This document shows, piece by piece, positions 20,663 to 25,437 of a stretch of DNA of 64,000 nucleotides (position 1 is its first letter; every line of letters starts with the position of its first letter). The notes under the pieces were generated by a model. That model was not told where the DNA came from and did no database searches. It was given only the letters and a program-made list of their open reading frames with translations. Location of the stretch: the IMG/VR virus record IMGVR_UViG_3300001525_000313, positions 1-64,000 of that record; one strand, 5' to 3'. Source of the DNA: a virus. Lineage: Duplodnaviria; Caudoviricetes. The translations under genes were made by a program, and so were the position numbers.

Positions 20663-21136
20663 CTATTTCCAAAAAGTATATGTAATATCTTCTAACTGTA
20701 AAGTATTATTTTTATAAAAAATATGATATAGCCTCTGATTAGTTGTTCGTGAATTTAATGGTCCTAGTTCTTTAATATATGGTCCAACTTTAATATAGTC
20801 AAAGTATCTTCCATAATATTTTAGATCTAACTCAAATTCACCGCTATACCAACCAACAAGCAAATCATAGTTTTCTTTTATATAGTTTGCTAGCTGAACT
20901 AATCTCAGTTTGTCATTATCACCACCAAGAAATAATATACATGAAATCCCATAGTTCTTTTTTATAAGATCATCTATAATTTCTGTGGTAAGTTCATCAC
21001 CGCAATCAGTCTGTAAATATGAACTATGACATCCTGGACATCGATGTGGGCAGCATGATAAATTTATACCTAAACTAATTTCATCATTAAGTTCTGCAAA
21101 ACAAACTGAAGTGTCTTCTGGAATATATTTAATCAT
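20663..21136 (-). CDS. nrdG: Anaerobic ribonucleotide reductase activating protein (radical SAM)
   Basis: CPHRCPGCHS, FLGGD, DYIKVGPY, TTNQRLY; directly downstream of nrdD; probable start MIKY at 21136. Confidence 0.93.
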   Translation of the reverse strand: MIKYIPEDTSVCFAELNDEISLGINLSCCPHRCPGCHSSYLQTDCGDELTTEIIDDLIKKNYGISCILFLGGDNDKLRLVQLANYIKENYDLLVGWYSGEFELDLKYYGRYFDYIKVGPYIKELGPLNSRTTNQRLYHIFYKNNTLQLEDITYTFWK

Positions 21137-21193
21137 ATGTTTGCTAGTTAATAAATATGGCATCAATAATTGATGCCATACTAATTTATTTAA

Positions 21194-22157
21194 TTATTTC
21201 GCTCTATACCTGTTATATTTGATATATTCATCAGACTCATTTGGCTCGTGTGAATCAAGATGATTAAATACTCTTGACTCAAACTCTTTCTTTCTACTAT
21301 CATTCCAATTTTTAATAGCAGTTAAATAGCCAATAATACGAGTATACATTTGGAGATTCTTGCTATGACATTCAGGACATTCATCAACTGGTATATTTAC
21401 TATTTTACCGCATTCTCTACATTCTGTCATTGGTATGTTAAATGTTAAATAACTACAACCAACTTTAGCAGAATATTCAAGAAGCTTTTTATATTGATTT
21501 GGTGATAAATGAGAGTCTAAATTGATATGTGCAGCTGAACCACCATCTAAATAATCGCCAATATAATCTCTGCCATGCATTTTAATTTTGTCTAATACAG
21601 AAGTCATATTGTCATTTGGTTTAAATATATAACTTGCATAAAGGTTTGTATCTTCTGGTACCCAAAATCCATCATTTTTATCCCAATTATAATTCTTTGA
21701 TGCAAGAGACTCTGCTGGAACTTGTTCAGTATTAAACATTAACTGATGTAAGCTTGTTTTATCTCTGTGAAGTTCATTTTGCTCTTTAAAGAATGAGAAT
21801 ATTTCCTGACAGAATTTTGAATACTTATCATTTACACTACACTTAATACCAAGAAATTCAGCTGCTTGATTTAATCCATTAAGACCAAGTGTTAAATATT
21901 GTTTATTTAAATCAATAAATCCTGCTCGATATGCTGGTAGTAAGTTTGCATCATACATATCCCATAATAATTCATTATAGGCATGATGATATTTATAAAC
22001 TCTATCTGTTAACTTTACAAGATATTTCTTTAATGAATTATAACATGAATCATCAAATGCAAAGCTATCTACATCACGCTTATCGCATTCTTTTCTATAC
22101 CATAGCTGAATTAAACGATTTAGATTAAATGTAATTACTGATTTACTTCCTGTTTGA
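21194..22157 (-). CDS. nrdD: NrdD C-terminal polypeptide, exon 2
   Basis: (I)QTGSKSVITFNLNRLIQ..., EQVPAESLA, LDGGSAAH, zinc ribbon CRECG/CPECH, glycyl-radical motif TRIIGYL. Confidence 0.92.
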
Positions 22158-22506
22158 CATTTTTACCTATATGTTTCCATATAGAATGGGTCATATCTTA
22201 CAAATAATTTATTTGTACACTTTTTCGGCGTTTAAAGAACTTCGTTTCCTAAAGTTCTACTGCGTATCAATAGCAGCCCTACTTCCTTGCTTATAACGAG
22301 GGAATGACCTCCACACACTTTAAATAATATTATAATAACATAATATTATTTATTTGGCTCGGTATTACCAGCTATCCATTTCTGGACCTTAGGCTTTCTT
22401 AGAAAGCGCATTCGTGCATATGCCTTATTTAACTTTTACCGACGCTATGAAATATCATAACGTTCTCTGATAAGAGAATTAAGTGTATAAGGACCCAAAT
22501 TAATTG
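22158..22506 (-). mobile_element. Group I self-splicing intron (349 nt, no ORF) in nrdD
   Basis: P1 exon GGAU pairs with GUCC (U.G at the splice site); P4 UCGGUA/UACCGA; P3 UACACUU/AAGUGUA; P7 GGUCA/UGACC with AAGAUA J8/7; P8 UACAAAUA/UAUUUGUA; P9 CUAUAUG-GAAA-CAUAUAG; terminal G; splicing restores NVG-I-QTGSKS in frame. Confidence 0.88.
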
Positions 22507-22685
22507 ATCCCGACATTACCATTCGTAAAATTAAATTCTTTTATTTGTAGTTTATTTTTAAGTCTACAATTATGGGTTATTATTCCATTAGCTGCAAAGT
22601 AATGATTTTTTTCAAGTTCTATATCATAAACAACTTTAGATGGTTCAACTTCTTTGCATGAAGAAATTTTTTCAAACTTTACCAT
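22507..22685 (-). CDS. nrdD: Split-intein C-half (39 aa, ...THN) fused to NrdD C-extein (CRLKNK...), exon 1
   Basis: MVKFEKISS...VYDIELEKNHYFAANGIITHN|CRL: intein blocks F and G with +1 Cys; GGAG upstream of ATG. Confidence 0.9.
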
Positions 22686-23754
22686 TTTCAAACTCCAGTA
22701 TACTATTTAATAAGCTCTCTTTTGTTAATGATCTATCATAAATTTCAAGAAGCTTAATACCACTAGACTTTGCAGCCTAGCGTTTTATAACATCAGTATA
22801 TGTCCAACCGTTAATAAGTCTATTGTAAATAGACTTAACCTTTGCTTTTTCTTTTACTTCATTAAGGTATTTTATGTCTTCTTGAGATTCATTATTAAAT
22901 GGATGTGGACCATGTGCCCAATACATTTGAAGCTCTATAAATAAATCTAAACTTTTTATATAAAAGTCACAGTGATATTTATGGCCATTTTCCGGATTAA
23001 CATATCGCCCATCTTTATATTGTCTTATAATATCACCAGCACCATAAATATCCTTTAACCAAATATAAGCATTTTCTTCATATGATGAAGTATTGGTAGT
23101 TTCATTCTTTTTCTTTGTCGCATCTATTTTATTAATACATTCTTCACATTTTCTATAATTATCAACACCATATTTTTCTAAACACGTCTTTTTATATTTT
23201 TCTTTTATAGCTTCTGACTGTGCAGGTACTGGTACACCGAAATGTAATATACTAGTCTGTTTACGCTTTTTAATTATTTCATCATTTACAGCAGAAATAT
23301 TTCCATATTTTTCTAAATTTGTCTTAAATCTTTTTTCTTTGTTTACATAATTAGGATTACCATAACGTTCTAATTTTGTATTTTTAATTTTTTCAACAGA
23401 CTCTTTAGGGCATCCTAAATAAGGGGTACCATATTTACTTATCATTGTTTGCTCTCTAAATTTAAGCCAGCAGTTAGTATCACCGCAAGTATCTGCAAAC
23501 AGTTTATTTAAATATTTTTTACCACGCCATTTAACTGGTTTACTACATATAGGACATATAGGTCTATTTTCAATATTAAAATATATTCTTAAAAATGTTT
23601 CTCTTAAACTTTCTGAATCATTGTAACGATTTTCTATATAATTAAGCACTTCAGGACAATTATTCATCATATATTCTCTAGTAGAATAATTACTATTAAG
23701 TCTACCATTTTTTGAAAAGAAATATTCTTTTATATATTCATCTGAAATTTCCAT
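22677..23754 (-). mobile_element. Free-standing putative homing endonuclease (CPIC zinc site, xLEKYG repeats, C-terminal PD-(D/E)XK/Vsr-like domain); premature TAG at 22777
   Basis: Repeats MISKYG/KLERYG/NLEKYG/CLEKYG; YHCDFYIKSLDLFIELQMYWAHG; frame continues past TAG as AAKSSGIKLLEIYD...ENGKV*. Confidence 0.75.
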
Positions 23755-23758
23755 AATG

Positions 23759-25111
23759 TTACTCTTCTATAGCAATTAAATAACGTTCTGGTGATTTGCA
23801 TATGAATTCCGCTGGTATATATTTAATTAAGCCGTCTTCACAGTCTTTAACCATTATTATATGATCACCAGTAACTGCTATATGCTTATCACCAACACAA
23901 ATTTCAAATAGTTTATTATCATTTTCTTTTTCTAATATACCAGTTATTTTAACTTTTTCAGAATTTATACCGTTATATGAATCTATAAAGTAGTTATTAT
24001 ATGAATGTTTATTCATATTTACAAATTCTTTAATTGTTAATGATTTTTCACTATTATCAGTACTATTATATACTTTAATAATTTCATCACCTTTAAAACA
24101 GCAAGAACTTAATGAATCGACTGAATCAGAAATGTATGTAAAGAATGAATGACCTCTTGCATATTCATCGCATACAAACTTAAACATTTCTTCATCAAGG
24201 AACTTATCATCTTTATATAATAATGTAACGGTTTCAACTGGGAATGTCAGAACAGTTCTAAGACGTTCAGCATTAAAACACTTCATAAATTCCATTTGAA
24301 TCCATTTTAATGATTCCCAATCTGGCTGTGATCCATCTGGAAAATAGAACTCTCCAAACATACCTTCAAAAAATGATTTATCAAAGTATGAAAAATTAAC
24401 AAACGCAGATTGAAAACCACGAGCTGCTGCAGGCTGATTAATTGTATAAATTATTTGCTGCCAATACTGTTGAATTTCTTGAAGTATTGTTCGCTGCTTT
24501 CCATCATATGTAGTTTCAACAATTTCATTTGCTCTTTGATAAAAATCAGGCCCCCATTCTTTTTTACAGAAATAAGTAAAATATAATAAAGTCTCACTTA
24601 CTGCAACTGCACCAGCAAACTGTGAGCTAAGTGCAAAAACCATATTACAGAATATTCCACAAAATGATTTAAGATTTTTTGGTGATGCTGATAAACCGCC
24701 TAGTCCTTTAATACCATCAATTAAGAATGGGTACATTGTTGCTGAAACACAATATGGTGATATAGCACCTGCGAATGATGACTCATCATGTTTATATATA
24801 ACATGATCTTCAAGGTCTCTAATATACCGTTTTGAATTAAATTCAGGGTAAAGCTCTTTTAATTTACCCATAACCATTGCACGTGATATACGAACATTAT
24901 CACTCTTATGCACTTCTGCATTTAAAATAGCAATATTTTTATTTGCTACATTTGAATTATCATCTATTGTACTATTTGCAGTATTTGATGCCTTCTTATA
25001 TCTGTTAATAAATTCTATTTTATTTCTTACATACTCATCCTCTGGTTCATTAGTATCTTCATTAGAGAGTACTTGATTAATCATACTATTGTCACTATTA
25101 TCTACAGGCAT
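23759..25111 (-). CDS. nrdD: NrdD N-terminal polypeptide (337 aa) fused to split-intein N-half (113 aa, from 24100)
   Basis: IYKHDES, PYCVS, SQFAGAVA, NQPAAARGFQS, TFPVET, DSLSSC then intein block A CFKGDE and block B VTGDH; no ATP-cone apparent. Confidence 0.92.
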   Translation of the reverse strand: MPVDNSDNSMINQVLSNEDTNEPEDEYVRNKIEFINRYKKASNTANSTIDDNSNVANKNIAILNAEVHKSDNVRISRAMVMGKLKELYPEFNSKRYIRDLEDHVIYKHDESSFAGAISPYCVSATMYPFLIDGIKGLGGLSASPKNLKSFCGIFCNMVFALSSQFAGAVAVSETLLYFTYFCKKEWGPDFYQRANEIVETTYDGKQRTILQEIQQYWQQIIYTINQPAAARGFQSAFVNFSYFDKSFFEGMFGEFYFPDGSQPDWESLKWIQMEFMKCFNAERLRTVLTFPVETVTLLYKDDKFLDEEMFKFVCDEYARGHSFFTYISDSVDSLSSCCFKGDEIIKVYNSTDNSEKSLTIKEFVNMNKHSYNNYFIDSYNGINSEKVKITGILEKENDNKLFEICVGDKHIAVTGDHIIMVKDCEDGLIKYIPAEFICKSPERYLIAIEE

Positions 25112-25146: not shown

Positions 25147-25437
25147 CTACTTGTGCCGACGTCGACCAGGTGTTTGTGTTGTATTATCTTTTGATATCTT
25201 CGGAATAGAATTATCATGTGGCCTGAGTCTATTATGTTCAACCAGTATAAGAAAATCAGCTTTAGGATTTATTTCATATAAGCCATACCAAGCTGTATCT
25301 TTATTAGTTAGTTGATGAGCATGCTGAAGTGCTTCATCTTTATCTAAAAAATCAATACTAATATGCTTATATGGAAATTGTTCAATCATAAGTCTATATG
25401 TACTTTGTTCAATTTTTGATTCTTTACGCTTAGCCAT
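25147..25437 (-). CDS. Hypothetical protein
   Basis: 96-aa ORF with AAGGA RBS. Confidence 0.65.
   Translation of the reverse strand: MAKRKESKIEQSTYRLMIEQFPYKHISIDFLDKDEALQHAHQLTNKDTAWYGLYEINPKADFLILVEHNRLRPHDNSIPKISKDNTTQTPGRRRHK

Follow-up and report, generated by a model that had tools for sequence, protein, structure and literature searches.

Introduction

In the fractured genes described by Dassa et al. (2009; PMC2677866), a split intein occurs together with a free-standing GIY-YIG or Vsr-like endonuclease in a phage gene, i.e., gp41, IMPDH, DnaE, NrdA, NrdJ, ligase, or terminase. An intron and an intein in one reductase gene are known, as cited in PMC3653736, for nrdE of the Bacillus prophage SPbeta and nrdD of Lactococcus phage 949. 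Among 104 genomes of Jug jumbo gut phages, 95 have an nrdD broken up by group I introns, free-standing endonuclease genes, and Intein_splicing open reading frames (ORFs). One Jug nrdD junction showed no RNA splicing (PMC12880540), as expected for a protein-level join. Here we compare with these systems the nrdD gene on a 64,000-nt stretch (hereafter the window; positions 1 to 64,000) of the Caudoviricetes record IMGVR_UViG_3300001525_000313. Very likely, this gene is occupied by three selfish elements within 1.9 kb, namely a split mini-intein, a Vsr-like endonuclease gene, and a group I intron, and its enzyme would be reached by a predicted route of RNA and protein splicing. The source IMG/VR record spans 102,922 bp at an estimated completeness of 48%; the window has a G+C content of 30%, and its DNA shows weak similarity to the Prevotella Lak megaphages.

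Results

A class III reductase gene in three pieces

All nrdD pieces and all inserted elements lie on the minus strand, at the coordinates (21194-25111) that an earlier, sequence-only reading of this DNA had given for them: an N-terminal NrdD part (NrdD-N, 337 aa) fused to an N-terminal intein half (IntN, 113 aa) and a stop, an endonuclease gene, a C-terminal intein half (IntC, 39 aa) leading into CRLKNK...NVG, a 349-nt intron, and the rest of NrdD. The nrdD coding sequence itself comprises three pieces. The first, the N-extein (24101..25111; 337 codons), runs to ...DSLSSC, i.e., to the first cysteine of the SCCR motif, matches positions 6–264 of Pfam NRDD (E 6e-32), and aligns to T. maritima NrdD up to C329. 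The second, exon 2 (22507..22568; 20 codons), holds the intein +1 cysteine, RLKNKLQIKEFNFTNGNVG, and the first two bases of an isoleucine codon, and the third, exon 3 (21194..22157), supplies the third base of that codon, 320 further codons (QTGSKS..., a Cys4 zinc ribbon, TRIIGYL), and the stop, matching Pfam NRDD positions 276–560 (E 7e-47).

Joining NrdD-N, exon 2, the isoleucine codon (AT|T), and exon 3 reconstructs a 678-aa protein that reads SSC|CRL...NVG-I-QTGS. This order, proposed earlier as DSLSSC-CRL...GIQTGSKS, is borne out by the 15 related viral contigs that we retrieved to compare the junctions. In 15/15 of these loci, exon 2 is followed without a break by one codon and then exon 3, none has an intron at the window's site, and in at least 8 NrdD-N reads directly into CRLKNK, with no intein. 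Aligned to two uninterrupted homologues (L006, 76% identity, and L007, 74%; labels of this form are our own, for related loci), the reconstructed protein is gap-free across both junctions and reads SSCCRLKNKLQ.KEFNFTNGN.G.QTGSKSVIT; with the intein removed, SSC|CRL equals the SSCCRL of intein-free homologues.

As judged from its NRDD domain, SCCR motif, zinc ribbon, glycyl-radical motif, and adjacent activase gene, the locus is a phage class III ribonucleotide reductase gene, nrdD, of the SCCR type. The alignment of exon 3 with T. maritima NrdD extends to and includes the glycyl-radical loop, the C-terminal zinc ribbon is kept, and TRIIGYL aligns with the T. maritima glycyl-radical motif MRIVGYL. 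The −1 cysteine aligns with T. maritima C329 and the +1 cysteine with C330, i.e., the intein sits between the two SCCR cysteines. Both cysteines are essential in T. maritima NrdD (Aurelius et al., PMC4493059), and an intein at this position would mean that no active enzyme exists before protein splicing. By analogy, the +1 nucleophile would be an essential cysteine. The sequence-only reading had named this nucleophile as the cysteine before RL, which holds, and had further taken it for the thiyl-radical cysteine; we keep that role as a presumption, as the T. maritima crystal structure shows the SCCR motif at a distance from the finger-loop tip (PMC4493059).

The window NrdD starts ~70 residues later than L006, L007, and L016 (region 24990–25111 and upstream to 25437). 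The N-termini of these relatives (V.KSDGS.EEFD..KL) look ATP-cone-like, and a 96-aa ORF upstream of the window nrdD (25147..25437) shows no ATP-cone resemblance. Other large insertions occur in the nrdD relatives L008, L009, L013, L017, and L019, near NrdD-N residues 124, 176, and 217 and near exon-3 residue ~150, making this gene family a hot spot for intervening elements.

The missing extension, together with a nonsense codon already carried by the endonuclease gene (see below), could be taken to mean that the nrdD locus is a decaying pseudogene whose elements are relics and which yields no functional enzyme. We regard this as very unlikely: the extein pieces are open, 74–86% identical to intact homologues, and exact at every junction, the SCCR, zinc ribbon, and glycyl-radical motifs are kept, nrdG is intact next door, and the intein retains its catalytic residues, which are under purifying selection.

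The intein is split at a conserved point

IntN (23759..24100; 113 codons and a TAA at 23761..23759) opens with Cys1 in block A, CFKGDEII, carries block B as VTGDH, and forms with NrdD-N a single ORF of 450 aa (25111..23759). The endonuclease ORF (23754..22777) begins 4 nt past the IntN TAA, in a frame different from that of NrdD-N-IntN. IntC (22569..22685; 39 codons) has its own ATG at 22685 with a GGAG 7 nt upstream, carries blocks F and G (...VYDIELEKNHYFAANGIITHN), and ends in ...GIITHN, followed by CRLKNKLQIKEFNFTNGNVG, so that the +1 residue is a cysteine. The blocks are those expected of IntN and IntC, and the same blocks recur in the related loci L212, L014, and L019. The Pfam Intein_splicing profile matched IntC at 30.0 bits, with a curated cut-off of 35.8, and did not report IntN; a sub-threshold score is expected for IntC because the match spans only 38 residues, i.e., the last 38 profile positions (118–155).

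An independent metagenome contig, L212 (AUXO012822708.1), has the same arrangement as far as it reaches: NrdD-N and IntN ending in ...YLIAVEK-stop, a full-length endonuclease of 359 aa, IntC with exon 2, and the start of the intron, inside which the contig ends. Window and L212 are 60% identical in IntN, 67% in the endonuclease, and 74% in IntC, with ratios of non-synonymous to synonymous substitution rates (dN/dS) of 0.17, 0.17, and 0.06, respectively, at saturated synonymous sites. These ratios indicate purifying selection on all three parts since the two lineages parted. L014 shares both the intein and its split point (...YLIAVE-stop; IntC of 39 aa), with a 176-nt spacer and no endonuclease between the halves.

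That the intein is really contiguous, with an embedded endonuclease, and looks split through sequencing or assembly frame errors is a reading that a metagenome-derived sequence invites, all the more when three ORFs are packed as tightly as here (one 4-nt gap, one overlap). Yet L212 and L014 were assembled independently, their IntN sequences are 40–60% diverged, and in both the stop stays in place after ...YLIA(I/V)E and IntC has its own start; the endonuclease, moreover, is of a free-standing family and shares its initiating methionine with many stand-alone homologues. Frame errors are therefore an extremely improbable explanation. Overall, the TAA after IntN, the separate IntC start with its GGAG, and the differing frames, conserved in L212 and L014, identify the intein as genuinely split rather than contiguous, which agrees with the earlier proposal. 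The locus would provide a new natural split-intein pair of 113 + 39 aa, with Cys1 and Cys+1 and with diverged orthologues for comparison.

Related phages carry this intein in other states. L019 has the same allele as a contiguous 164-aa mini-intein, and from these sequences the one nrdD site appears to present a full series across related phages, i.e., contiguous (L019), fractured (window and L212), and split without nuclease (L014). Such states correspond to the stages set out in the gene-breaking model (Dassa et al. 2009; PMC2677866), and a series at one site makes the route from intein to split intein testable with natural sequences. The identical CC site is occupied by a different mini-intein allele in L005 and in the Lak phages, where it is contiguous and 188 aa long in both Lak-A1 (MK250015; L021:2329-4182) and Lak-B1 (MK250020; L020), and by a LAGLIDADG intein in L010. 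At least three further interruptions were seen in the Lak-B1 nrdD. The L014 spacer (L014:5645-5820) contains a TAG followed by an in-frame open stretch of 53 codons (LKIKGFELREL...), which may represent what is left of an ORF or may point to read-through of TAG in L014.

A Vsr-like endonuclease gene between the intein halves

The free-standing ORF between the intein halves (22777..23754) encodes 325 aa. Its only Pfam match is DUF7487, and PHROG 3339, to which it belongs, is labelled ‘homing endonuclease’. Homologues number more than 1000 stand-alone proteins, many with the same start methionine and the closest at 73–77% identity, and several large phage contigs carry 4–5 copies each. Across 20 aligned sequences, we found a common Cys4 zinc ribbon with KYG-type helical repeats and a common C-terminal block, hCDFYI..DLFIE.q.W.HG.HPF, with E226, D263, E274, H281, and D293 invariant. 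D263 is 11 positions from E274 and 18 from H281, the same distances as in Vsr D51-F62-H69 (Vsr positions from PMC2677866). An invariant glutamate at the Vsr Phe62 position marks the Vsr-like family of Dassa et al. (PMC2677866), and the composite seen here from sequence spacing, E..D..H..D plus a glutamate at that position, fits the description of EDxHD homing endonucleases (PMC3239194).

Structure prediction pointed the same way. When the TAG described below was read through, the full C-terminal domain was modeled at a predicted local distance difference test score (pLDDT) of 95, and its best match among 48,161 chains was Vsr itself (1cw0_A; Z 9.1, root-mean-square deviation (rmsd) 3.5 Å over 113 residues), followed by the catalytic domain of I-Bth0305I (3r3p_B; Z 8.9, rmsd 3.5 Å, 95/98 residues). 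Foldseek likewise ranked 1cw0 first (probability 0.95). The whole-protein model of the truncated endonuclease had no Foldseek match and matched Vsr weakly (Z 4.1), which indicates that the complete C-terminal domain is needed for the Vsr fold match. Sequence searches of the PDB with the protein or its profile gave no hit to Vsr or I-Bth0305I, and a Pfam search with the catalytic domain gave nothing. By its modeled structure, the gene between the intein halves encodes a homing-endonuclease fold of the Vsr-like, EDxHD type.

A single-sequence search of viral contigs found no close relative of the endonuclease. No IntC-like motif lay downstream of 80 more distant endonuclease loci, as screened with a crude regular expression; on this weak test, a fractured context appears to be uncommon in the nuclease family.

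The sequence-only reading had described a free-standing endonuclease, with which the fold agrees. The ORF is cut short, however, by a premature TAG (22779..22777) that falls 34 codons ahead of the end common to all 19 aligned homologues. Past the TAG, these 34 codons and a TGA that overlaps the IntC start are still open and in frame (22672..22776), and they retain the coding sequence for a conserved strand and helix at the C-terminus of the nuclease domain (AAKSSGIKLLEIYDR...). L212 carries a threonine codon at the position of the window's TAG. We read the TAG as a recent nonsense mutation, and because the missing tail holds a core β-strand, the window's copy of the endonuclease is probably inactive and decaying, which would be a recent step in the decay that fixed homing endonucleases usually undergo.

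Alternatively, the endonuclease may be intact, with the TAG read as an amino acid through recoding or a suppressor, as in Lak phages, and translation coupled to the IntC start. The codons after the TAG are not only open but highly conserved with homologues, in-frame TAGs fall within the GIY-YIG motif of the ORF in the related Lak intron, and the window DNA has its weak similarity to the Lak phages. However, 17 of 108 long ORFs in the 103-kb record end in TAG, nearly all with short open stretches beyond it and nrdG with none, and ORF coverage barely shifts when TAG is counted as sense. No tRNA gene was found in the record, which is ~48% of the genome, such that a suppressor tRNA could lie outside it. 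We consider read-through at this codon unlikely, though less so than the other rival readings discussed here. Genome-wide TAG recoding was likewise judged unlikely from the TAG ORF ends, the tRNA search, and the ORF coverage.

An ORF-less group I intron 62 nt downstream of the intein

The 349-nt insert between exons 2 and 3 (22506..22158) begins after a U and ends in G. The exon 2 frame runs on into ATC AAT TAA within the insert, and in the frame of exon 3 a TAA stands two codons 5′ of the junction. Near the 5′ end of the insert, an internal guide (22499..22491) accounts for both exon pairings: exon GGAU pairs with GUCC (22494..22491) to form P1, with a U.G at the 5′ splice site, and the 3′ exon UCAAA pairs with UUUGG (22499..22495) in a 5-bp P10. 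The core comprises P3 (22487..22481 with 22222..22216), P4 (22442..22438 with 22363..22359) with its GGUAAUACCGA element, a P6 bearing an A+T hairpin, P7 (22309..22305 with 22193..22189) with R- and S-like flanks, P8 (22216..22200), P9 (22184..22167), and the terminal G (22158). A G also precedes the exon in the Lak introns and in the family members with a placeable 3′ splice site. The P3-P8 and P4-P6 domains of a conserved core are thus recognizable, with the qualification that two hairpins stand between P3 and P4. The minimum-free-energy fold of the intron is far more stable than those of shuffled sequences (z = −6.2). Comparison with L212 adds compensatory changes throughout the 5′ half, i.e., in P1, both hairpins, and the P5 hairpin; in P1, an exon A-to-G change is matched by U-to-C in the guide.

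BLAST placed the intron in a wider family. Its 3′ half matches the Lak-A and Lak-B phages at 75% identity (E 1e-26) and also gaps within split genes for DNA polymerase III and terminase in Enterococcus phage EF1, Bacillus phage G, and phiAGATE. A 28-base pattern from the P7.2 region recovered at least 106 stretches in viral contigs, most with a canonical GACUA/UAGUC P7 and a AAGAUAGUC element; an exact 18-mer from the S element of the window intron recovered nothing in viral contigs. Across 33 aligned 3′ halves, with a structure of P7, P7.1, a three-way P7.2 domain, P8, and a P9 with a GAAA loop, pairing held in 91.4% of cells, compared to 32–45% in slid controls, or about 42% over the whole 3′ half. 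Both sides had changed in 25 of 37 pairs, and the covariation score was unreached by any of 500 shuffles. P7 paired in 100% of cells, with three of its five pairs changed on both sides (GGUCA/UGACC vs GACUA/UAGUC). RNAalifold, run on 27 sequences without the window, Lak, and L212, independently returned the same helices.

A covariance model built from these 27 family sequences (R1), which likewise excluded the window, Lak, and L212, scored the window intron at 125.3 bits (E 2e-30), Lak-A1 at 123 bits, and Lak-B1 at 116 bits, and it recognized the core of the experimentally self-splicing T4 nrdD intron at 29.7 bits (E 8.8e-6). The Rfam group I model RF00028 behaved differently. It gave 28 bits for the phiAGATE terL intron and a full-length alignment of L041, an ORF-less member, at 29 bits (E 2e-5), both below its threshold of 50, and at the gathering score Rfam reported nothing on 20 family loci. 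The group I identity proposed by the sequence-only reading, for which covariance-model searches had been suggested, hence fails with RF00028 and succeeds with the family model.

The family's helix order probably explains why RF00028 misses it. P3 pairs a strand just after P1 with a strand just before P8, and compensatory pairs are seen across members: UACACUU/AAGUGUA, UAUAUCUU/GAGAUAUA, UAUACCUU/GAGGUAUA, AAUGGUU/AGCCAUU, and CACAUCUU/GAGAUGUG. The case for P3 rests on these specific pairs because the longest-helix statistic discriminates weakly (own mean 6.6 vs cross mean 5.4). In the 5′ halves of the family (window 22443-22487; L041, L044, L053, L074, L101, L108, L117), the P3 5′ strand follows directly after P1, the usual P2 before P3 is absent, and two covarying hairpins stand between P3 and P4; a literature search for hairpins at that place returned nothing useful.

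One might instead suppose that the 349-nt insert is kept in the RNA and that the last nrdD piece is translated from an internal start, given the ATG at 21958 and the lack of an Rfam match. Such a start would lose 66 conserved codons (QTGSKSVITFNLNR...), the frame of exon 3 meets a stop two codons 5′ of the junction, and structure, covariation, and model hits all back a group I core. We judge this highly improbable and conclude from structure, covariation, and homology that the insert is a group I intron, whose splicing is predicted. A widespread phage intron family missed by Rfam at threshold would also explain why such split genes go unannotated.

Among its relatives, the Lak intron is homologous and lies at the identical codon, with a GIY-YIG ORF where the window has the P6 hairpin. 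This ORF contains in-frame TAGs (KVYIG*T), which fits TAG recoding; the Lak genomes MK250015 and MK250020 are published but unannotated. The T4 nrdD (sunY) intron, cited as a precedent by the sequence-only reading, stands as a group I intron of a phage nrdD but not as the same insertion. The first T4 exon closes after 181 codons, far short of the radical-cysteine region, a placement by exon length alone as BLAST gave no alignment between T4 NrdD and the window NrdD. Since the site differs, T4 is an analogy.

Neighboring features

Directly downstream of nrdD, also on the minus strand, lies an nrdG-like radical-SAM activase gene (20663..21166; Pfam Fer4_12 and Radical_SAM). An 11-bp perfect palindromic hairpin (21156-21180) is located between the nrdD stop and the nrdG start.

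Discussion

Given this anatomy, we infer the following route to the enzyme. The region would be transcribed as one unit; a scan for sigma-70 promoters and terminators in the region gave chance-level results and no convincing internal terminator. Self-excision of the intron, after U 22507 and ahead of 22157, would link exons 2 and 3; an unspliced message would give only IntC plus 22 residues. Translation would then yield NrdD-N-IntN (450 aa) and IntC-NrdD-C (380 aa), whose intein halves would associate and trans-splice through Cys1, the terminal asparagine, and the +1 cysteine. The product would be the 678-aa NrdD, to be activated by NrdG.

Several observations weigh against this picture. RF00028 has no match in the window, either at the gathering score or at E 10, and the intron's helix order (P1, the P3 5′ strand, two hairpins, then P4) is unusual; IntC falls below the Pfam Intein_splicing cut-off (30 vs 35.8 bits); the window NrdD lacks the ~70-aa N-terminal extension of several relatives; and the endonuclease TAG removes 34 codons, core β-strand included, that are present in 19/19 aligned homologues. 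The exact and conserved junctions, the purifying selection on the intein halves and endonuclease, the RNA covariation, and the nuclease fold are the evidence on the other side, and we still consider the three-element reading very likely.

A more tentative proposal, for which we see some chance but which we hold to be doubtful, is that the three elements move as one unit driven by the single nuclease, i.e., a collaborative homing of intein and intron. Under such co-mobility, the Vsr-like endonuclease would cleave nrdD alleles that lack the insertions, close to the CC|RL codons, and co-conversion repair would copy the split intein together with the ORF-less intron 62 nt away. Consistent with this, the ORF-less intron was seen only where the nuclease gene is present (window and L212), and the Lak phages, which are without the nuclease, keep a GIY-YIG ORF in the homologous intron.

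The kinds of element at this locus are all known, as publications exist on fractured genes, on the coincidence of intron and intein in reductase genes, and on the fragmentation of nrdD in jumbo phages of the gut. The three-element stack in a class III reductase is hence less unprecedented than the sequence-only reading suggested (PMC2677866, PMC3653736, PMC12880540), although NrdD was not among the fractured genes of 2009. A literature search pairing ‘split intein’ with NrdD found none, save one review that names each separately, and the paper on Jug phages (PMC12880540) names neither split inteins nor trans-splicing.

A close parallel is with the fractured genes of Dassa et al. (PMC2677866), which share the order of host-N with IntN, stop, same-strand endonuclease ORF, and IntC with host-C, as well as the Vsr-like nuclease class; as in their fractured NrdA, the insertion adjoins a radical cysteine, here a presumed one. 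Unlike these genes, the window's host is NrdD, outside the eight enzyme types reported, its nuclease is a truncated copy with a DUF7487 N-terminal region (zinc ribbon and KYG repeats), and a group I intron lies 62 nt downstream. With SPbeta nrdE and phage 949 nrdD, the locus shares the presence of an RNA-level and a protein-level element in one reductase gene, whereas their inteins, as cited in PMC3653736, are contiguous or remnants, and the window's is split such that two polypeptides must meet. The T4 nrdD intron, a group IA intron with I-TevII, occupies the same host gene and belongs to the same broad intron class, but has its own GIY-YIG ORF and a different insertion site, and the window intron is ORF-less. 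Lak nrdD is nearest in position, with a homologous intron at the identical codon and an intein at the identical CC site, yet its intein is contiguous and of another allele, its intron holds a GIY-YIG ORF in the P6 loop, and it has no free-standing Vsr-like gene. Finally, the nuclease resembles I-Bth0305I, the EDxHD prototype (PMC3239194; PDB 3R3P), in its Vsr-like catalytic domain with E/D/H/D and a glutamate at the Vsr Phe62 position, and differs in being free-standing rather than intron-encoded, in having other N-terminal modules in place of NUMOD repeats, and in having no significant sequence match to it. Set against these systems, the window would extend the fractured-gene arrangement to a class III reductase, and what it adds to them is a natural series of intein states together with a poorly detected intron family.

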